NCBI GenBank assembly: GCA_964622225.1
Contig: CAZUOG010000001.1
Location: 4,830 to 68,829 of the forward strand
Source of the DNA: an uncultured Actinomycetes bacterium
Lineage (GTDB): Bacteria; Actinomycetota; Actinomycetes; Nanopelagicales; Nanopelagicaceae
Direction of reading: 5' to 3'
DNA: 64,000 nt
Below the pieces are notes generated by a model. That model was not told where the DNA came from, did no database searches, and saw only the letters and a list, made by a program, of their open reading frames with translations. The position numbers were made by a program, and so were the translations under genes. Shown piece by piece: positions 26,649 to 35,019 of this stretch; within the stretch, counting starts at the first letter, position 1; every line of letters begins with the position of its first letter.

Positions 26649-28085
26649 ATGCTAACTTTTAAGCGCGGAGATCAACTTTCAAAAAAAGCTAATCAGATTC
26701 TGCTGCCGGTAGTAGAAGGCAAAGTTTCCGCCCCAGAATTCGCCAAACTATTCGATTTAAATCTAGATGATGAATTGTCGTTCTTTCTAACCGCAGATAA
26801 ACCCCTTAAAGCTGGAGAGATATTTGAAATTCCAGTTAGCGCACAAGGTTATAAATGTGAACGCTTGAGTTTTGTTTCCTTTGGAAAATTAACTAATTCT
26901 GATTTACGTCAAGCAGGCGCTTCAGTTGGTCGAAGACTGCGTGGCAAAGGTGACTTGGTTTTCTTTAAGAGCAATTTGAAACCAGCACAATTGAAGTCAT
27001 TCTTAGTCTCATCCAATTTGGGAAATTTCACTTGGAATCTAAAAACTGGCGCAAAAACTTTCACTGCAGTACTTGAAGTATCAAATTGCGAAGAAGAAAT
27101 TTTAACTAAGGCACAAATTGTCTCTGATGCCGTAAATCGCGCTCGCCAATTGATACATACCCCTTCAAATATTAAGAACCCTGAATGGATTGCAAAACAA
27201 GCAAAGAAGTATGCAAACGGCACCAAAGTTGAAGTGAAATCCGGTGTTCAGCTAAATGAATTTGGTGGTTTAAAAGCAGTTGGCGGATCATCTCCTAAAC
27301 CAGGACCGCGATTTATAAAGATGTCGTATGCACCACGAAAATCTGGTGCCAAGCACATTGTGCTGGTAGGTAAAGGTATTACTTACGATACTGGCGGAAT
27401 TTCTTTAAAGCGTCCATACGACATCATGATTCCAATGAAGAGCGATATGGCTGGAGCGGCAGCATGCCTTGCAGTCATGAGTGCATTGAAAGATTTGAAA
27501 GCCAATGTAAAAGTTACAGCTTTATTGATGTGTGCGGAAAACGCGATTTCAGGAACAGCCCAACGCCCCGGAGATGTAATCACTCATTACGGTGGAAAAA
27601 CTGTCGAGATTCTGGATACAGATGCGGAAGGTCGTTTGGTGTTAGCAGATGGTTTGGCATATGCAGTTAAGAATTTAAAACCAGACTATTTAATCGATAT
27701 TGCAACCTTAACTGGATCGGCCACATTAGGACTAGGTAAGCAATATGCCCCACTATATTCAAGAAATATAAAGTGGATTCAAGAACTGCGCGAAGCGGGA
27801 GAATCATCGGGGGATCGTGTTTGGCATATGCCATTGATTAATGATTACGAAATTGCTTTGCAATCAGATATTGCTGATATTAATCAAACAGCAGACAAAG
27901 GTATTTTTAAAGCAGGCTCAGTGACGGCAGCGTTATTTTTGGAACAATTTGTCGGAGGCGCAAATTGGGCACATTTAGATATTGCTGGTGTTGGGCGCGC
28001 TGAAAGCGACGCTGGCGAAAATCCAAAAGGTGGAACGGGCTGGGGAGTACGTTTGCTACTTGAGTGGATTGGAAGTTTTAAGTGA
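26649..28085 (+). CDS. pepA: leucyl aminopeptidase (M17)
   Basis: VGKGITYDTGG and DTDAEGRLVLAD motifs. Confidence 0.9.
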   Translation: MLTFKRGDQLSKKANQILLPVVEGKVSAPEFAKLFDLNLDDELSFFLTADKPLKAGEIFEIPVSAQGYKCERLSFVSFGKLTNSDLRQAGASVGRRLRGKGDLVFFKSNLKPAQLKSFLVSSNLGNFTWNLKTGAKTFTAVLEVSNCEEEILTKAQIVSDAVNRARQLIHTPSNIKNPEWIAKQAKKYANGTKVEVKSGVQLNEFGGLKAVGGSSPKPGPRFIKMSYAPRKSGAKHIVLVGKGITYDTGGISLKRPYDIMIPMKSDMAGAAACLAVMSALKDLKANVKVTALLMCAENAISGTAQRPGDVITHYGGKTVEILDTDAEGRLVLADGLAYAVKNLKPDYLIDIATLTGSATLGLGKQYAPLYSRNIKWIQELREAGESSGDRVWHMPLINDYEIALQSDIADINQTADKGIFKAGSVTAALFLEQFVGGANWAHLDIAGVGRAESDAGENPKGGTGWGVRLLLEWIGSFK

Positions 28086-28708
28086 AATTTGATTTAGCGC
28101 AGTTTTCGGATAATTACATTCCCGAAGATCCGCACCAAACCGCCGCTCGCGAAAAAGGTGTCGAACTTGGCGTAGTTGACGCAACACCAGGTTCGGGTGC
28201 TTTTTTACGCTACGTTGCTTCTTTAATTTCGGCTCAGTCAGTTGTAGAAGTCGGAACTGGCTCTGGCGTCGGAACTCTTTGGCTACTTAAAGGTTTAATG
28301 AATTCCGGTGTTATAACAACTATCGATCCAGAAGTTCAGCATATTCAAATTGCTAAGCAAGTTTTAGCGGATGCAGATATCGCACCAAATCGATATCGAT
28401 TAATTACTAGTGATTACTTAGAAGTAATGCGAAAACTTGCAGATCGAGCATATGACTTGGTGGTTTTTCGCGGCGAACCAGAAGATGTGCTTGATGTAAT
28501 TGATGAAGCGCATCGAATTCTGCGAGTTGGTGGAATTTTGGCTATCGACCATTTCTTCGGTGGAGGCAAAGTGCCTGATCCTGCTCAAAGAGATCCAAAA
28601 ACTGTTGCGCTTCGTGATGCAGGAAAATTCTTAAAGAGCCAGAGCGAGGTTTGGTCGATTTCACTAAACCCAGTAGGCGACGCAGTTTTACTCGCGACGA
28701 AATTGTAA
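28082..28708 (+). CDS. class I SAM-dependent O-methyltransferase
   Basis: VVEVGTGSGVGT SAM-binding motif. 208 aa. Confidence 0.8.
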   Translation: MKFDLAQFSDNYIPEDPHQTAAREKGVELGVVDATPGSGAFLRYVASLISAQSVVEVGTGSGVGTLWLLKGLMNSGVITTIDPEVQHIQIAKQVLADADIAPNRYRLITSDYLEVMRKLADRAYDLVVFRGEPEDVLDVIDEAHRILRVGGILAIDHFFGGGKVPDPAQRDPKTVALRDAGKFLKSQSEVWSISLNPVGDAVLLATKL

Positions 28709-28721
28709 ATACGCTACCCAC

Positions 28722-29021
28722 ATGTTCGGAGATATCGGTTTCGGTGAAATGCTGGGACTTGCCATATTGGCGCTAGTCCTAGTCGGCCCTGATCGACTTC
28801 CTACTTTTGCAGTAGAAGTAGCAAAACTAATCAAAAAGTTTAGAACTTATGCAGTAAGCGCCACGGATCAAATTAAAGATTCACTTGGGCCAGGATATGA
28901 AAATCTAAAGCCAGAAGATTTGCATCCAAAGAACTTCATTAAAAAGCAGATAAATGAAGCATTAGTTGATGAACCTAAGAAATTAAATAGCAAAGCTAAA
29001 TTAGATCCAGAAATGCTATGA
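28722..29021 (+). CDS. tatB: twin-arginine translocase subunit TatB-like
   Basis: MFGDIGFGEMLGLAILALVLVGPDRLP N-terminal TM plus amphipathic helix. Confidence 0.8.
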   Translation: MFGDIGFGEMLGLAILALVLVGPDRLPTFAVEVAKLIKKFRTYAVSATDQIKDSLGPGYENLKPEDLHPKNFIKKQINEALVDEPKKLNSKAKLDPEML

Positions 29022-30130
29022 GCCAATTATTAGATGCACTAAGTAAAGTTATCGACCCTGAACTTCGCCGTTCTATTACTGAACTTGGCATGGTCGAAAA
29101 AGCTGAATTAAGCAACGGCCGCGCAGAAGTAAAAGTCTTACTCACTATCGCAGGCTGCCCAATGCGTGAAACGCTTACCAATGACATTCACAAAGCTCTT
29201 TCCGATATAAAAGAAATCAAAGAAATTGCTCTTGAATATGGAGTCATGAACGAAGCGCAACGTGAAAAAGTTCGCGACATTGTTCGTGGTGGCAAAGCGA
29301 AAGAGATTCCATTTGCTCGCCCAGATTCTCTAACTCGAGTAATTGGAGTTTCATCTGGCAAAGGTGGCGTTGGCAAGTCTTCGCTAACAACAAATTTAGC
29401 TATTGCGGTAGCAAAGCAAGGTTTTAACGTCGGTATTCTTGATGCAGATGTTTACGGACACTCAATTCCAAGACAGCTAGGCTTAATTGGGCAACGTCCA
29501 ACTGCAATTGATGACATGTTTATTCCGCTGGAAAATTACGGCGTCAAATGTGTTTCGATGGAAATGTTTAAACCTGATCGCGCTGAAGCAGTTGCATATC
29601 GAGGACCTATTCTCCACAAAGTTCTCTCACAATTACTTACTGATGCATTTTGGGGCGATTTAGATTTCTTATTTCTGGATTTGCCTCCAGGTACCGGAGA
29701 TTTGGCTATTTCGCTAGGTCAACTAATTCCAGCATCAGAATTGATAGTTGTTACAACTCCACAAGTCGCAGCAGCTGAAGTTGCTGAACGTTCAGGGCGA
29801 ATTGCTCATCAATTGAAACAACAAATTGTCGGCGTTATCGAAAACATGTCTGCATTTCCTTGCCCTAAATGTGGCGAGAGAATTGAGTTATTCGGAAATG
29901 GTGGCGGAGAAGCAACAGCAGCCAGACTGAGCCAATTAGTTGGGGCAGACGTTCCCGTTCTTGGTCATATTCCATTTAGCCCATCTTTACGTAATGGCGG
30001 AGACGAAGGCGCTCCAGTTGTAATTGGTGCTGAAACTGATCCCGCGGCTAAAGCAATAATTGAAATCGCGATGAATTTAACTCAACGTAAGCGCTCTCTC
30101 GTTGGCGTCCCGCTCAAATTGAACACTTGA
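29018..30130 (+). CDS. mrp: Mrp/ApbC-type Fe-S cluster carrier ATPase with N-terminal DUF59-like domain
   Basis: Deviant Walker A SGKGGVGKSS. CPKC motif. Confidence 0.9.
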   Translation: MSQLLDALSKVIDPELRRSITELGMVEKAELSNGRAEVKVLLTIAGCPMRETLTNDIHKALSDIKEIKEIALEYGVMNEAQREKVRDIVRGGKAKEIPFARPDSLTRVIGVSSGKGGVGKSSLTTNLAIAVAKQGFNVGILDADVYGHSIPRQLGLIGQRPTAIDDMFIPLENYGVKCVSMEMFKPDRAEAVAYRGPILHKVLSQLLTDAFWGDLDFLFLDLPPGTGDLAISLGQLIPASELIVVTTPQVAAAEVAERSGRIAHQLKQQIVGVIENMSAFPCPKCGERIELFGNGGGEATAARLSQLVGADVPVLGHIPFSPSLRNGGDEGAPVVIGAETDPAAKAIIEIAMNLTQRKRSLVGVPLKLNT

Positions 30131-30158
30131 TTCCTTAAGGCTCAATTAGAATTGCGGT

Positions 30159-31463
30159 ATGTCAAAGACCGCGCCTCGTACACAATCTGCGGTCCTTACT
30201 CGAAAAGGGATCCAGAGTTCACTGGTCTCAGTAGCCGGAATTATTGGTCGCCCAGTTAAAGATCAAGATGGTAGAGATCTTGGGAAACTGGTCGATTTTG
30301 TTGTACGCCATGGCGGCGAAACTTATCCTCCTGTTTCGGGCCTGATTGTCAAAGTTGCAGGCCGTCGTGCTTACATTGATGGTGCGCGTATCGCGAAATT
30401 AACTAAAGATGAAATCACGCTCTCATCTGCAAAAGTTAATCTAAATGAATATCAAAGACGTTCAGGTGAACAGTTACTTGATGGTGATGTGCTGGATCAC
30501 CAAATTGTTGATGTTAATGGACTTCGTGTAGTTCGTACTTCAGATCTTTATTTGGCGCCGCTCGATAGAGAAATTCGCCTTGTAGGCGTTGACGTTTCAT
30601 TTCGTTCTTTTGTGCGCCGAATTTTTCCTGGGACATTTGGTCGCAAACCTGGCGTAGATCAAGTAATTGATTGGGCTAGCGTGGCTTCTCTTGCAGATGA
30701 CGGAGGAGTGGTTAGAACAACTGCTACTCGCGAAGCGCTAAGTAAATTGCGTCCTGCAGATATTGCAGACATTATCGAAGACTTAGAGGGTCGCGAGCAG
30801 AGCGCACTCATTGAATTACTTGATCCAGATCTGGCGGCGGATGCGCTTGAAGAAATGGAAGATGATGAACTGCAAGGTTTGCTACGTGGTATTTCAGACG
30901 AACGTGCCGCAGAACTCTTGTCTCACATGGAACCAGATGAATCTGCCGAAGTTTTACGTGACTTGGATGAAGAGCACTCTGAAAGTATTTTGGCGCAAAT
31001 GGCTCCGGCGATGGCAAAACAATTGCGTCGCTTGGTGGAATTTGATGAGACGCATGCCGGCGGCATTATGACTACTCATATATTGATCGTTAAAGAGAGC
31101 GACATCGTTTCAGATGCTTTGAAATTACTAGTAGAGCATCGTGAACGCGATATTTCCGACGGTGTTACCGTTGTAGATTCAAAGGGAAAATTGCTCGATC
31201 ACATCCAAATTATTGAATTAATTGCAGCTAAACCATCAGAAAAGTTGGAAAATTTAGTAAAGGCTCCATTTCCAACGGCGGTCGGAATTGACACTCCATT
31301 AGAGGATGTAATCGAAGAATTTTCTAATAACCGCGGTTCTTCAGTAATTGTGGTTGATCAAAAAGGTAAACCAGTTGGCAGAATTTTGGCCGATGACATT
31401 ATTGACGCAATGGTTCCAGCAGAGTCCAGTGGATTAGCGCAAGGATCTGGAGCGCTTTCATGA
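30159..31463 (+). CDS. soluble PRC-barrel / MgtE N-terminal domain / CBS-pair protein (no membrane domain)
   Basis: 434 aa. An acidic MgtE-N-like helical repeat region (LDPDLAADALEEMEDDEL...) followed by two CBS-like segments. No TM helices. ATGA overlap with the next gene. Confidence 0.8.
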   Translation: MSKTAPRTQSAVLTRKGIQSSLVSVAGIIGRPVKDQDGRDLGKLVDFVVRHGGETYPPVSGLIVKVAGRRAYIDGARIAKLTKDEITLSSAKVNLNEYQRRSGEQLLDGDVLDHQIVDVNGLRVVRTSDLYLAPLDREIRLVGVDVSFRSFVRRIFPGTFGRKPGVDQVIDWASVASLADDGGVVRTTATREALSKLRPADIADIIEDLEGREQSALIELLDPDLAADALEEMEDDELQGLLRGISDERAAELLSHMEPDESAEVLRDLDEEHSESILAQMAPAMAKQLRRLVEFDETHAGGIMTTHILIVKESDIVSDALKLLVEHRERDISDGVTVVDSKGKLLDHIQIIELIAAKPSEKLENLVKAPFPTAVGIDTPLEDVIEEFSNNRGSSVIVVDQKGKPVGRILADDIIDAMVPAESSGLAQGSGALS

Positions 31464-32704
31464 GCACTAAATTAGATTCTCGCAAACTGCGCTTAGGCGC
31501 ATTTCTTGCTGTTATGGGCCCTGGAATTATTGCCGGGCTATCTGATGACGATCCAGCAGGCATCACAACATATTCTCAATTAGGAGCACAATTTGGTTAT
31601 CAACTCTTGTGGACTTTGGGAATCTCCACTATCGCTTTAATTCTTTTCCAAGATTTAGGTGCACGCATCGGTGTGGTGACTCGTCAAGGCTTAATTGGAT
31701 TGGTGCGCCAAAAATACGGCGCCCGCTCTGGAATGTTAAGCGCACTTGCATTGGTCATCGCAAATATCGGAACTATGACTGCAGAATTTGCAGGTATTGC
31801 GGCGGCTGGAAATCTCTTTGGAATTTCAAAGTACCTCACGGTGCCTTTGGCTGGAATTGTGGTTTCATTCTTAGTGCTCCGCGGAAGTTTTGCTCGCGTT
31901 GAAAAAGTATTTTTCATTCTGGCTTCTGTATTTATCTCTTACGTAATTGCAGGTTTCATGGCCAAACCAGATTGGTCAGCTGCAGCAAAAGGTCTATTAG
32001 TTCCTACTATGCCTTTTAACCATGATGCGCTCTTTATAGCGACTGCAACATTGGGTACCACGCTTGCACCTTGGGGACTTGCCTTTATTCAAAGCTATGC
32101 AGTTGATAAGCGCCTTACAAAAGAAGATTTAAAACTGCTACGAGTAGATGTTTGGACTGGTTCACTCTTAACCGGAATTATTGGATTTTTCGTAGTTATT
32201 ACTTGCGCGGCCACACTTAAAGCAAACGGTCAGACTTCTATTACTGATGCGGCGCAGGCAGCAGCTGCGCTCAAGCCTTTAGCTGGCACATTAGCAAAGG
32301 AGTTATTTGCACTTGGTCTGATTGGCGCAGCGCTACTAGCTGCTTCGATTTTGCCACTTTCTACAGCATATGCAGTCACGGATCTAACCGGAAGACCAGC
32401 TGCCTTAGATGACAAAGCGAGTGAAGCACCACTTTTCTATGCAACATTTGGTGCGATCACAATTGTGGCCGCAGCACTTGTTCTGATCCCTGGTGCACCT
32501 CTAATTCGAATTCTAGTTTTGACTCAGATTTTGAATGCAATTTTATTGCTTCCACTTTTACTTTATATGTTTGGCATTGCAAAAGATGAAAGATTAATGG
32601 GTGAATACAAAGCCACAAAAAAAATGCTTTTTGTATACACATTAATTATTGGACTGATTTTTATTTGCGTCGGGACTCTGCTCTGGTTTAGTACCGCAGG
32701 ATGA
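31460..32704 (+). CDS. Nramp (SLC11)-related transporter with non-canonical, NRMT-like metal site
   Basis: 414 aa, about 11 TM. TM1 DPAG (31550-31561) in place of DPGN. TM6 GTTLAPW (32054-32074) in place of GA.VMPH. Confidence 0.8.
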   Translation: MSTKLDSRKLRLGAFLAVMGPGIIAGLSDDDPAGITTYSQLGAQFGYQLLWTLGISTIALILFQDLGARIGVVTRQGLIGLVRQKYGARSGMLSALALVIANIGTMTAEFAGIAAAGNLFGISKYLTVPLAGIVVSFLVLRGSFARVEKVFFILASVFISYVIAGFMAKPDWSAAAKGLLVPTMPFNHDALFIATATLGTTLAPWGLAFIQSYAVDKRLTKEDLKLLRVDVWTGSLLTGIIGFFVVITCAATLKANGQTSITDAAQAAAALKPLAGTLAKELFALGLIGAALLAASILPLSTAYAVTDLTGRPAALDDKASEAPLFYATFGAITIVAAALVLIPGAPLIRILVLTQILNAILLLPLLLYMFGIAKDERLMGEYKATKKMLFVYTLIIGLIFICVGTLLWFSTAG

Positions 32705-33579
32705 GCGAGAAAAAACATTTAGCTTTTCCCAATAAAGCCGACTCAGTTCGGTTAGCAATTGGAGTTATGGGAATTGGTACATCTGGCCCATTAATTGCAC
32801 TTAGCACCATGCCAGTTTTGACTCTGATTTTTTGGCGCAACCTCGGCGGCGCAATTGCAACTTTCTTTACGAACTACAAAAAGTTGGAATTAAAAGATCG
32901 TGAAGGCTTCAAATGGTCTGCAATTGCTGGAGTAGTTCTGGCGGCGCACTTTGTTGGTTTCTTTCTTGCAATGCGTTATACATCGGTTGCATCCGGTACT
33001 GCGCTAGCTGCGCTGCAACCTATTTTCGCCACAATTTTTGCTGTTTTCACGGGACATCATGTTTCAAAACTTTCCTGGTTTGGCATGTTAGTAAGTTTTA
33101 TCGGCGTGCTCTTTATTTCCGGAATAGATTTACATTTTTCTTGGAGAGCTTTTCAAGGTGATTTAGCAGCGATAGTTTGTGCAGCTCTAGCAGCTACCTA
33201 TGTAAATCTTGGGGCGAAAGCGCAGCGCACAATACCTCCAACAACATATACAACTATTTGCTATTTCTTCTGTGCGCTAAGCGCGCTGCCATTTGCACTA
33301 ACTCAAGGAAATTTCATCCATTTTGCAGCACGTGAATGGTGGCTGGTACTGGGATTAATTATTGGGGCTCAATTGCTTGGCCATTCCATGTTTAACAGCG
33401 TATTAAAGAGAGTATCCCCAGCAATTGTTTCAATGGTCGTTTTCTTCGAAGTTCCTATAAGCGCTTTATTAGCTATTTGGTGGCTACGTCAGAAACCACA
33501 TTTAGGTATTTGGATTGGGATTGTTGTAATTATGGCAGGTAGTACTTTGGTGATTTTGGGCCGCACTGATGAAAATTGA
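32701..33579 (+). CDS. EamA/DMT family transporter
   Basis: 292 aa, about 10 TM in two repeated halves. Confidence 0.8.
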   Translation: MSEKKHLAFPNKADSVRLAIGVMGIGTSGPLIALSTMPVLTLIFWRNLGGAIATFFTNYKKLELKDREGFKWSAIAGVVLAAHFVGFFLAMRYTSVASGTALAALQPIFATIFAVFTGHHVSKLSWFGMLVSFIGVLFISGIDLHFSWRAFQGDLAAIVCAALAATYVNLGAKAQRTIPPTTYTTICYFFCALSALPFALTQGNFIHFAAREWWLVLGLIIGAQLLGHSMFNSVLKRVSPAIVSMVVFFEVPISALLAIWWLRQKPHLGIWIGIVVIMAGSTLVILGRTDEN

Positions 33580-34417
33580 TTTACATACTCATTCCAGTAA
33601 GAGTGACGGAACTATGTCACCAACTGAATTAGTACAACATGCAATCATTAATGGAGTAACTGTCTTAGGTCTTACAGATCATGACACTGTTGCAGGCTGG
33701 GATGAAGCAACTTCGGCGGCCAGGGGAGATTTTCAGCTGGTACTTGGTGCTGAAATTTCATGCCTAACTGAAGATCACAAAAGTATTCACATGTTGGGAC
33801 TTTTATTTGATAAAAGCGATGAACCTTTGCAAGAGGTATTGGGGGCAAGTCGCGATGACCGAATCCCGCGAATGAAAAAGATGATTGAACTAATGGCAGC
33901 TGACGGATTAAAAATCACTTTCGATGAAGTACTTAAATATTTACCCGATGGAACAACTTTAGGTCGTCCTCATCTAGCGGATGCTTTAGTGGGAAAAGGA
34001 ATAGTTAAGAATCGAGACCAAGCATTTGCAGAGTACTTAGCAAATGACTCTAAATACTATGTTTCACATTTAGCACCAACTCCAATCCAAGCGATTAAAT
34101 TAATAAGGAATGCAGGTGGAGTAGCTGTTATTGCCCACCCATACTCTTCTATGCGTGGTGAAAAGATTGACTTGGACTCTTTAAGAGCTTTAAAAAAAGC
34201 GGGTTTGAATGGTATTGAGGTAGATCATAGAGATCATTCCGCTGATGAACGCCTTAATCTCCGCGCTATTGCATCAGAATTAGATTTGGTAATTACCGGT
34301 TCGAGTGATTTCCACGGTTCTGGAAAATTAAATTTAATTGGTGAGAATGTCACATCTCCTGAACATTGGGAGCGATTAGAATCTCTTGCTAATGAACGAA
34401 GGGTTATAAAGAAGTGA
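33569..34417 (+). CDS. PHP-domain phosphoesterase (TrpH/YciV-like)
   Basis: IDLHTHSSKSDG N-terminal metal motif. 282 aa. Confidence 0.8.
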   Translation: MKIDLHTHSSKSDGTMSPTELVQHAIINGVTVLGLTDHDTVAGWDEATSAARGDFQLVLGAEISCLTEDHKSIHMLGLLFDKSDEPLQEVLGASRDDRIPRMKKMIELMAADGLKITFDEVLKYLPDGTTLGRPHLADALVGKGIVKNRDQAFAEYLANDSKYYVSHLAPTPIQAIKLIRNAGGVAVIAHPYSSMRGEKIDLDSLRALKKAGLNGIEVDHRDHSADERLNLRAIASELDLVITGSSDFHGSGKLNLIGENVTSPEHWERLESLANERRVIKK

Positions 34418-35019
34418 AAGATGTAAGTACTCTGACCTTTGCCCTTCAGGCATTTGTTACATTGATGGTGATTCTTGATCCACCTGGCAATGCGCCGATT
34501 TTCTTGGCTGTGCTCGGAGATCGCAGCGCCAAAGAGGGCCGACAATTAGCAGTTCAAGCCGCAACTATTTCGTTTTTAATCATTGCAGGTTTTGCACTCT
34601 TTGGCCGATTCTTACTTGATTACATGGATGTATCCATTGGCGCCATGCAAGCTGCGGGTGGTTTATTGCTATTGATGGTTTCTTTAAATTTGTTAACCGG
34701 CAAAGAAGATAACGAGTTAACTTCAGGTTCCAAGAATGTCGCAATGGTTCCGCTAGCTACACCTTTACTTGCAGGTCCTGGCGCAATTGTTGCGGTGATG
34801 ATTTTTGCGCATCAAGTTAAGAGCGTTGATATGGGAGTGGCACTAGCTGCATCAGTGATCGCAGTCCATGTTTTTGTTGCTTTAGCTTTGATGGCTTCCA
34901 CGTTTATTTTGAAGTTAATCGGAAAAGCTGGCGTTGATTTGCTGGCAAGAATCGCAGGTTTAGTGCTTTCTGGAATTGCGGTTCAAATGTTGGCGAACGC
35001 TATCCACGCACTCGCTTAG
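34414..35019 (+). CDS. MarC family integral membrane protein
   Basis: 201 aa, 6 TM. ILDPPGNAPIF motif. Confidence 0.78.
   Translation: MKDVSTLTFALQAFVTLMVILDPPGNAPIFLAVLGDRSAKEGRQLAVQAATISFLIIAGFALFGRFLLDYMDVSIGAMQAAGGLLLLMVSLNLLTGKEDNELTSGSKNVAMVPLATPLLAGPGAIVAVMIFAHQVKSVDMGVALAASVIAVHVFVALALMASTFILKLIGKAGVDLLARIAGLVLSGIAVQMLANAIHALA

Follow-up and report, generated by a model that had tools for sequence, protein, structure and literature searches.

In the magnesium channel MgtE, the plug helix and the Mg2 and Mg3 sites couple sensing to the pore. A gene for a protein like the cytosolic domain of MgtE also adjoins most nrmT genes, which encode Nramp-related magnesium transporters (NRMTs). 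Shin et al. (2014; PMC4072509) report this pairing across phyla and propose feedback regulation from the cytoplasm. The pair from A. capsulatum was co-expressed in B. subtilis, which is the single such test described there, and rescue was not improved; the transporter itself acted mainly as a Mn2+ importer and mostly rescued Mn2+ deficiency. The role of the MgtE-like partner has been a standing question since 2014. Another NRMT, EleNRMT of Eggerthella lenta, carries both Mg2+ and Mn2+ without proton coupling (Ramanadane et al. 2022, eLife 11:e74589). At its ion-binding site, the Asp of other Nramps is kept, Asn is replaced by Gly, Ala by Thr, and Met by Ala, and the alpha-6b histidine positions are occupied by Trp and Asn (PMC8806188).

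We analysed a 64,000-nucleotide window from the streamlined, 1.1 Mb genome of a freshwater actinobacterium of the Nanopelagicaceae, and we propose that two of its genes (ORF A and ORF B, Table 1) form a magnesium-uptake cassette in which ORF A is a Mg2+-dependent brake on ORF B. We put the probability of this reading at roughly 55%. The two reading frames, their ATGA overlap, and the in-frame motifs DPAG (GAT CCA GCA GGC) and GTTLAPW (GGT ACC ACG CTT GCA CCT TGG) are exactly as given in the initial annotation, judging from the list of open reading frames and the sequence itself.

Table 1. Features of the ORF A-ORF B locus, in window coordinates.
Feature	Position	Strand	Description
mrp/apbC Fe-S carrier gene (left flank of slot)	29018..30130	+	Pfam ParA/NUBPL, E = 2e-83
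ORF A	30159..31463	+	434 aa; soluble PRC-PRC-MgtE_N-CBS-CBS; putative trans-acting Mg2+ sensor subunit
PRC-like barrel 1, residues ~29-90	30243..30428	+	Pfam PRC at residues 28-88, 17.2 bits, below cut-off; strands E32-88, pLDDT 85-91
PRC-like barrel 2, residues ~104-178	30468..30692	+	carries the NRMT-partner signature
MgtE_N helical domain, residues ~190-295	30726..31043	+	aligned to 2yvy
CBS pair, residues ~300-418	31056..31412	+	Pfam, 2yvy alignment and AlphaFold model
ATGA stop/start overlap of ORF A and ORF B	31460..31463	+	read from sequence
ORF B	31460..32704	+	414 aa; NRMT-clade SLC11 transporter (Mg2+/Mn2+ and probably no H+ coupling, by analogy with EleNRMT)
TM1 site DPAG	31550..31561	+	D31, G34 = EleNRMT D55, G58
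TM2-TM3 loop, residues 71-91	31670..31732	+	candidate docking site for ORF A; cytoplasmic side predicted from SLC11/LeuT fold
TM6 site GTTLAPW	32054..32074	+	T200, A203 = EleNRMT T224, A227
EamA/DMT transporter gene (right flank of slot)	32701..33579	+	Pfam EamA, E = 2e-30; 4-base overlap with ORF B

ORF B matches Pfam's Nramp family over 356 of the 357 profile positions (E = 2e-84). It scores 300 bits against EleNRMT (7qia, E = 4e-88) and at most 91 bits against other Nramps (E = 1e-24 or weaker), and it is about 48% identical to EleNRMT over 400 residues. In a quick tree search, ORF B clusters with EleNRMT and apart from MntH (SH-aLRT = 100), where MntH was represented by five sequences with DPGN and MPH motifs that do not sample clades A, B and C individually. 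The match to EleNRMT and the tree both place this Nramp-fold transporter in the NRMT clade and not with these MntH proteins, as had been suggested from its motifs. The substitution pattern that the initial annotation described is indeed the one published for EleNRMT (PMC8806188). We verified the correspondence in residue numbering between the two proteins, and W205 and I210 of ORF B occupy the two alpha-6b histidine positions. By analogy with EleNRMT, ORF B probably transports Mg2+ and Mn2+ without proton coupling.

In ORF A, Pfam identifies an MgtE_N domain (residues 197-297, E = 6e-23), two CBS stretches (E = 4e-13), and no membrane domain. The MgtE model TIGR00400 aligns only at profile positions 21-251 of 450, ORF A ends 16 residues past the CBS pair, and the C-terminal five-helix pore domain (PF01769) has no match anywhere in the genome. 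Since ORF A has no pore domain and covers just part of TIGR00400, it is not an MgtE channel. In the AlphaFold model (pLDDT 79.5), the C-terminal 235 residues (~190-420) superpose on the cytosolic domain of MgtE (2yvy; TM-score 0.78, rmsd 3.1 A, E = 2e-18), residues 30-90 and 104-178 form two beta-rich modules, and the tail (422-434) is disordered. The PRC assignment (PF05239) is below the cut-off of 21.2 bits in ORF A itself, but homologues exceed it (35.7 and 38.7 bits, with two stretches each; 30-39 bits for aligned homologues). Pfam and the model thus agree with the original description of a soluble PRC-PRC-MgtE_N-CBS protein without a pore. (A large homologue search with ORF A gave almost only near-identical freshwater sequences, so little was gained from it.)

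We compared ORF A to the Mg-site residues of TtMgtE as listed in PMC5882242, with the numbering offset set by the D91/D95/D226/D247/D250 pattern in the 2yvy alignment. D228, D260, and E264 of ORF A align with TtMgtE E59, D91, and D95 (the Mg7, Mg4, and Mg6 sites), and D413 and D416 align with D247 and D250. R392 is at the position of D226, so one ligand of Mg5 is lost. [quoted passage not shown]

The pairing is not limited to this genome. A gene similar to ORF A lies directly upstream of NRMT in 42 of 77 informative actinobacterial loci, which come from several orders and have differing flanks, and the pair also occurs, next to other neighbors, in other orders whose genomes are large and not streamlined. 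In the family itself, NRMT adjoins A in all 68 of the A-type genomes (68/68, among 151 genomes). The expected linkage of a sensor-like gene with NRMT is therefore conserved. The trees of A and B share a topology. At 27 NRMT loci, mostly from Solirubrobacterales, the upstream position has no gene like ORF A, which means that the transporter can function alone.

Residues specific to this partnership can be seen on both sides. In the second PRC barrel, E104, L107, D110, V111, D113, Q115, V117, D118, G121, R123, and R126 show at least 90% conservation, and in part full invariance, across all NRMT-linked partners, even those without CBS domains, and these positions differ in the paralogues that are linked to DUF1003. 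On the transporter side, 17 positions are at least 90% conserved in A-linked NRMTs and are changed or relaxed in the A-less NRMTs; six of the 17 (V72, Q76, G80, Q84, Y86, and G91) are in the TM2-TM3 loop, but most of the A-less set comes from a single clade, so phylogeny confounds the comparison.

We propose the following mechanism. The enlarged site of NRMT, with Asp, Gly, Thr, and Ala instead of Asp, Asn, Ala, and Met, accepts Mg2+ in a partly hydrated state along with Mn2+, and by analogy with EleNRMT, transport by ORF B would be driven by the membrane potential and not coupled to protons. Because an NRMT is an uncoupled electrogenic importer with no cytosolic domain, it needs a brake. ORF A probably forms a dimer via its CBS pair, and high cytosolic Mg2+ probably brings the N and CBS domains into a closed arrangement. 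The closed form would then dock on the cytoplasmic face of the transporter via the tandem PRC barrels, with the TM2-TM3 loop of ORF B as a candidate contact, and inhibit transport. We infer the binding of ORF A to ORF B, the direction of the regulation, and Mg2+ as the ligand that is sensed, and so too the gating of ORF B in trans.

ORF A could instead be a true partner of NRMT that is not a Mg2+-dependent brake: it might help NRMT to assemble or keep it stable, take over the imported ion as a metallochaperone, or use the CBS pair to sense adenine nucleotides or some other ligand. The conserved linkage and the shared phylogeny show partnership and not its direction, and a chaperone activity for the partner is also raised by Shin et al. 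(PMC4072509). Many partners, such as those in Mycobacterium and Microthrixaceae, keep PRC-PRC-MgtE_N but have no CBS pair, so the conserved core is less than a full MgtE sensor, and the plug-helix sites are missing from ORF A. Still, the five acidic residues kept from the N/CBS interface of MgtE argue for the brake, as does the physiological need for one that unregulated, uncoupled transport by NRMT would create, and we consider these other roles for ORF A doubtful.

In the Nanopelagicaceae, mrp and eamA border two types of cassette. Among 151 genomes from the family, the slot between these genes contains A and NRMT in 68, A' and DUF1003 in 77, and both cassettes in none. A and NRMT are gained and lost as a unit, and there have been at least three switches between the cassettes within genera. 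(The exclusivity could be simple allelic replacement at one locus.) A' is a paralogue that is 26-28% identical to A, shares its four-part architecture, and aligns over residues ~22-422. Its genes are on the opposite strand, and its partner is not an NRMT but a membrane protein of 160-200 amino acids with a cytosolic coiled coil and two helices, the second of which is near-invariant and preceded by an invariant outward-facing Asp. We take the soluble family that is paired with DUF1003 to be of the Rv1232c/Rv1231c type. The adjacency of a related soluble family to DUF1003, pointed out in the initial annotation, was borne out in other Actinomycetes; the source genome has no DUF1003 gene, and the gene downstream of ORF A is the NRMT. 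A local partner swap, with A evolving from a resident A', is ruled out because A and A' form two clades that split deep in the tree: the A' clade has support of 100, with A outside it. The closest relatives of A from other families come from Propionibacteriales and are linked to NRMT.

We also looked for CorA, MgtE, NRMT, and MgtA-type ATPases as importers of Mg2+ in genomes of the family. In the window's genus, CorA and MgtE are missing from all 20 genomes, so NRMT is probably the main Mg2+ importer of this genus. In the closed A-type genomes of a sister genus (G034, G073, G085, and G097), CorA, MgtE, and MgtA-type ATPases are all absent. The idea that NRMT replaces CorA is rejected, since CorA is found in 19 of the 68 A-type and 25 of the 77 A'-type genomes. 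One genus has three near-complete genomes with neither cassette and with no CorA or Nramp, so Mg2+ must also enter by some other route. With its tiny genomes, in which the cassette appears to be the sole recognizable Mg2+ importer, this lineage is a clean natural system for studying the partner's role.

These inventories also bear on whether the cassette is for manganese (or divalent cations in general) rather than magnesium, with ORF A responding to Mn2+. We think this is unlikely: CorA and MgtE are missing from the window's genus, the four closed genomes would otherwise have no Mg2+ importer, and the site residues of ORF B are identical to those of EleNRMT, which is Mg2+-competent. EleNRMT carries Mn2+ as well, though, and the A. 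capsulatum homologue that rescued mainly Mn2+ deficiency also has an adjacent MgtE-like gene (PMC4072509). The lack of an M-box riboswitch fits manganese too: RF00380 has no match at the gathering threshold in the window or at 18 related loci, and neither an M-box nor any other riboswitch was found upstream of the pair or at those 18 loci. The A. capsulatum member is also described as having no M-box (PMC4072509), so an M-box is not obligatory for these operons.

Eleven closed genomes with A' and DUF1003 contain no CorA, MgtE, NRMT, or MgtA-type ATPase, which puts DUF1003 forward as a possible conduit for cations. Tentatively, two unrelated membrane partners may share one kind of portable cation sensor, the PRC-PRC-MgtE_N(-CBS) protein, acting in trans; DUF1003 would then be an undescribed uptake channel for Mg2+ or divalent cations. 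The swap at this slot gives a lead to the role of DUF1003, a widespread domain of unknown function, and it may explain the Mg2+ supply of abundant freshwater Actinobacteria that have no known Mg2+ importer.

At the junction itself, the ATGA overlap alone is nothing special: from 26.6 to 35 kb of the window, 5 of the 9 junctions of genes on the same strand have a 4-base overlap. An overlap or abutment of A and B is kept among the orthologues in the family, and metatranscriptome contigs (31436-31517) cross the junction, although the RNA runs are represented by Logan contigs, which may include DNA. No transcript ends were seen in the RNA runs, which contain only 5-8% of the words, and scans for sigma-70 promoters and terminators gave fewer matches than in shuffled sequences, or no more. 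The adjacency is more than chance because it is conserved far outside this compact genome. That ORF A and ORF B are functionally unrelated neighbors in a streamlined genome, where ORF B likewise overlaps the unrelated EamA gene, is very improbable and is effectively refuted by the comparative data: the pair persists in large genomes with other neighbors, A and B co-diverge, the pair comes and goes as a unit across the 151 family genomes, and such pairs are reported across phyla (PMC4072509).

ORF A and ORF B are thus a well-supported further example of the pairing published in 2014 and not a new system. As in the operons of mgtE-like fragments with nrmT (Shin, Wakeman et al. 2014, PLoS Genet 10:e1004429; C. 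acetobutylicum Ca_c0685 and A. capsulatum Acp2976-Acp2977), the transporter is immediately downstream of a homologue of the MgtE cytosolic domain, on the same strand, and the same regulatory hypothesis fits. In contrast to many but not all of those operons, there is no M-box upstream. ORF A has two N-terminal PRC barrels within its 434 amino acids, a feature not described in the part of that paper drawn on here, and in TM1, the nrmT products described there have DAGG where ORF B has DPAG. Compared to the cytosolic domain of TtMgtE (T. thermophilus; 2YVY/2YVX), ORF A has the same MgtE_N superhelix and CBS pair and keeps the acidic residues of Mg4, Mg6, and Mg7 and half of Mg5, but it is a separate polypeptide with two additional N-terminal barrels, and it lacks the plug helix, the transmembrane pore, and the Mg1-Mg3 sites. 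ORF B and EleNRMT (PDB 7QIA/7QIC/7QJI/7QJJ) are in the same clade and share the Asp/Gly/Thr/Ala site and the Trp that replaces the first alpha-6b histidine. EleNRMT has DAGG, whereas ORF B has the same Pro as canonical DPGN; the second histidine position is Asn in EleNRMT and Ile in ORF B; and ORF B belongs to an Actinomycetota-wide sub-lineage in which DDDPAG and GTTLAPW are invariant. What is new here is the genus without CorA or MgtE, the A'-DUF1003 genomes without known importers, the swap at the mrp-eamA slot, the mirrored trees, the signature in the second PRC barrel, and the contrast in the TM2-TM3 loop; the signature, the loop, and the retained acidic sites give concrete handles for testing how an NRMT and its MgtE-like partner work together.

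We propose that A, the soluble PRC-PRC-MgtE_N-CBS protein, and B, the NRAMP-related (NRMT) transporter, form a two-part uptake system in which A would throttle the Mg2+ importer B when cytosolic Mg2+ is high. This is our best-supported reading, with a probability of roughly 0.55. B would import Mg2+ (and Mn2+) electrogenically and without proton coupling; A would be a CBS dimer whose acidic clusters resemble those of MgtE, and its PRC barrels would dock on the cytoplasmic face of B. Our analyses show what both proteins are and to which clade they belong, that A retains sensor residues, that the linkage of the pair is conserved and co-evolving, and that conservation in A and B depends on the partner; we infer the binding of A to B, the ligand that is sensed, and the direction of regulation. 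The initial annotation placed the two ORFs on the same strand with an ATGA overlap, and an ORF and frame check confirmed this, as well as the in-frame DPAG and GTTLAPW motifs of B.

Coordinates of the gene pair and of related features (positions in the window, unless the locus, L, or genome, G, of a relative is given)
Feature	Position	Strand	Remark
ORF A	30159-31463	+	434 aa
ORF B	31460-32704	+	414 aa
ATGA stop/start overlap joining A and B	31460-31463
TM1 site DPAG in B	31550-31561		in-frame translation
TM6 site GTTLAPW in B	32054-32074		in-frame translation
Slot (between mrp and eamA)	29018-33579	+	A + NRMT
Slot in sister genomes, same family and genus	L032-L042 (e.g. L032:1378-5162)	opposite	A' + DUF1003
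CBS-less partners	L079:3129-3998, L083:3093-3986, L090:3108-3983, L110:3141-3971
DUF1003 gene	L032:2458-2955	-	compared with 21 others, L028-L051
DUF1003 ORF as called	L047:2453-3043	-
TPP riboswitch	L047:2330-2433	-	70.6 bits
DDDPSG/GTTISPY variant	L160:1423-2682	+	genome G027
Fragment similar to A	G023:C2:886593-886811		73 residues

Pfam finds MgtE_N at residues 197-297 of A (E = 6e-23), two CBS stretches, and no membrane domain. The NCBIfam mgtE equivalog covers A over profile positions 21-251 of 450 only, which is the cytosolic part. An AlphaFold model (26 homologues as input; mean pLDDT 79.5, pTM 0.60) has beta-rich modules at ~30-90 and ~104-178, a helical domain at 190-295, a CBS pair at 300-418, and a disordered tail; residues ~190-420 superpose on the cytosolic domain of MgtE (2yvy; Foldseek TM-score 0.78, rmsd 3.1 Å, E = 2e-18). 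The PRC match in A itself is under the Pfam cut-off (17.2 bits), and aligned homologues exceed it with two stretches each (L090, 35.7 bits; L116, 38.7 bits). We also mapped the Mg sites listed by Maruyama et al. 2018 (PMC5882242) onto a HMMER alignment of A to T. thermophilus MgtE. E59 (Mg7) and D95 (Mg6) have acidic counterparts (D228 and E264), D91 and D247 (Mg4) are kept as D260 and D413, and of the Mg5 pair, D250 is kept as D416 and D226 is lost (R392). The alignment has no counterpart of plug-helix E258 and D259 (Mg2, Mg3) or of pore D432 (Mg1). From the model, the fold match, and the site mapping, A is an MgtE sensor module that lacks both pore and plug and carries two additional PRC barrels, so the original description of a soluble PRC-like, MgtE_N, and CBS protein without a pore stands.

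A might instead assist the NRMT in a way other than gating, which we consider unlikely. Shin et al. 2014 (PLoS Genet, PMC4072509) speculated that the MgtE-like partner of NRMT provides cytoplasmic feedback regulation or chaperone activity, and in the one pair that they tested (Acp2976/2977 of A. capsulatum), co-expression did not improve rescue. The acidic residues that A retains are those of the sensor.

B matches the Nramp profile of Pfam end to end (E = 2e-84). Among all PDB sequences, its best match is the Eggerthella lenta Mg2+ transporter EleNRMT (7qia; E = 4e-88, 300 bits, ~48% identity); the next Nramp reaches 91 bits, and MntH structures from Deinococcus reach ~73 bits. The EleNRMT residues that we reconstructed from this alignment agree with the published numbering; D55, G58, T224, and A227 align with D31, G34, T200, and A203 of B. 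In EleNRMT, partly hydrated Mg2+ is accommodated via Asn to Gly in helix 1 and Ala to Thr and Met to Ala in helix 6, and both helix-6b histidines are also substituted (Ramanadane et al. 2022, PMC8806188). The three changes that had been noticed in B are exactly these, and W205 and I210 occupy the two histidine positions. In a maximum likelihood tree of B, 21 actinobacterial relatives, EleNRMT, a second actinobacterial NRMT lineage (motif DAGG), and five canonical DPGN/MPH MntH proteins, EleNRMT and the DAGG lineage group with B and its relatives, and a branch with support of 100 separates them from MntH. As B does not cluster with MntH, we classify it as an NRMT, in agreement with the initial annotation. 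GTTLAPW is present in 22/22 (B and the 21 relatives) and DDDPAG at TM1 in 20/22; our motif scan missed TM1 in the other two (L099 and L129).

EleNRMT transports Mg2+ and Mn2+ but not Ca2+, and has no H+ coupling (Ramanadane et al. 2022, PMC8806188); the A. capsulatum transporter behaved mainly as a Mn2+ importer (Shin et al. 2014, PMC4072509). Still, we think it improbable that Mn2+ is the physiological substrate of B. CorA and the MgtE pore are absent from 20/20 genomes of the window's genus, so the NRMT is its only recognizable Mg2+ importer.

We also note a third Nramp-related variant, with DDDPSG at TM1 and GTTISPY at TM6, which is 34% identical to B and 28% to EleNRMT and has no adjoining sensor gene. 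Similar matches occur in eight more genomes (G068, G082, G094, G116, G131, G138, G110, and G143).

Scanning one genome per species, we found 595 relatives of B. The best 80 are all from Actinomycetota (Nanopelagicaceae, Propionibacteriales, Mycobacterium, Acidimicrobiia, and Thermoleophilia), and 42 of the 77 of these loci with upstream room have an A-like gene directly upstream. The block mrp-A-B-eamA is kept within the family (A 62-96% and B 71-92% identical), and outside it the flanks of the pair are unrelated, which upholds the proposed linkage. The trees of A and B share groupings (Nanopelagicaceae with Propionibacteriales, Mycobacteriaceae with Microthrixaceae, and an Acidimicrobiaceae pair), so the two genes are inherited as a unit. 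Five 4-base start/stop overlaps (GTGA/ATGA) occur among nine consecutive plus-strand genes of this 1.1 Mb, 74%-complete Nanopelagicaceae (acI) MAG (window 26649-35019; tatB/mrp, A/B, B/eamA, PHP/marC, and pepA/methyltransferase), so the overlap alone is no sign of functional coupling; with linkage conserved across differing flanks, it is very improbable that compaction alone made A and B neighbors. RNA-derived freshwater contigs cross the A/B junction (e.g., set X7 at 31436-31517, 0-2 mismatches), but this is weak evidence because of possible DNA carry-over.

The partners have three forms: the full PRC-PRC-MgtE_N-CBS protein; a 276-325 aa PRC-PRC-MgtE_N protein without CBS, in Mycobacterium, Microthrixaceae, and relatives; and a 228 aa protein in which the PRC domain alone was detected. 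The CBS-less partners end in a basic W-P-R-R-R tail, whereas the window's A ends in GSGALS. In 27 loci (L094-L130, mostly Solirubrobacterales), tblastn found no A-like gene upstream of the NRMT. Far from its intact A-NRMT cassette, the closed genome G023 has a fragment that matches the N-terminus of A at 64% identity and may be what is left of a second copy.

Across the NRMT-linked partners, the sole long invariant run is in PRC barrel 2 (E104, L107, D110, V111, D113, Q115, V117, D118, G121, R123, and R126), and these positions differ in the DUF1003-linked paralogues. In the transporter, 17 positions show conservation of 90% or more among A-linked NRMTs but are changed or relaxed in A-less ones. 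Six of the 17 cluster in residues 72-91, the TM2-TM3 loop, which should be cytoplasmic by SLC11 topology and is less conserved in the 27 A-less loci. Because phylogeny confounds this contrast, it only hints at a contact.

Almost all genomes of the class encode a protein, A', whose alignment with A spans residues ~22-422 at just 26-31% identity. Wherever we examined its locus, a protein of 157-210 aa comes next; the two that we scanned as representatives are DUF1003 (PF06210, E = 7e-37 and 4e-37). In Nanopelagicaceae, mrp and eamA flank A'-DUF1003 just as they flank A-NRMT, but A'-DUF1003 is on the opposite strand. The A' proteins form one clade (support 100) that follows taxonomy and A belongs to another lineage, so the whole cassette was replaced, rather than the partner exchanged. 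Among 151 family genomes that are each at least 85% complete, 68 carry A without A' (with NRMT beside it in 68/68) and 77 carry A' without A; 6 carry neither, and the two never occur together. Both states are found within each of three genera (g1, g5, and g10), which implies at least three switches. G017, a 76%-complete MAG, has both A and A', but its A is on a 2.9 kb contig, so it is probably a binning mixture. An EamA/DMT gene adjoins A'-DUF1003 in several other families of the class (L028, L031, L046-L048, and L051), so the eamA neighborhood is older than Nanopelagicaceae.

CorA is present in 19/68 A-type and 25/77 A'-type family genomes, and given this similar presence we rejected it as a substitute for NRMT across the family. 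Eleven closed A'-DUF1003 genomes (99-100% complete; G098, G109, G119, G126, G133, G152, G158, G163, G178, G062, and G076) lack any known Mg2+ importer: CorA, Nramp, and the MgtE pore are missing, and no MgtA-type ATPase scores above the cut-off. Each has one DUF1003, adjoining A'. The closed A-type genomes G034, G073, G085, and G097 have no CorA, MgtE, MgtA, or DUF1003.

DUF1003 has two hydrophobic helices joined by a short loop that contains an invariant Asp (D67) followed by a PF motif. Helix 2 and its boundary hold 16 consecutive invariant residues (QASYAAPLILLAQNRQ), then DRDR, and the C-terminal segment is charged. Judging from sequence, the invariant pattern resembles a pore-lining helix. 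Together with the slot swap and the closed genomes that lack any known importer, these features make DUF1003 a candidate cation conduit. That it is a cation channel or conduit regulated by A' is a tentative idea, to which we give well under even odds; it is testable, and is raised but not proved by our observations. Two caveats apply to it: in genus g18, three near-complete genomes do without either cassette, CorA, and Nramp, and the exclusivity of the cassettes may simply reflect replacement at one locus. Our literature search found no functional study of DUF1003. At L047, a TPP riboswitch is recorded as overlapping the DUF1003 ORF, as called, at its 3' end; this riboswitch probably belongs to the gene that follows.

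The initial annotation correctly described the A-B operon in a new lineage, but the pairing itself is not new, as Shin et al. 2014 (PMC4072509) had already reported that most nrmT genes adjoin a gene for the MgtE cytosolic domain. What is new is the allelic swap between A-NRMT and A'-DUF1003, with strict exclusivity across the 151 genomes; the PRC2 and TM2-TM3 signatures; and closed genomes that lack every known Mg2+ importer. [quoted passage not shown]
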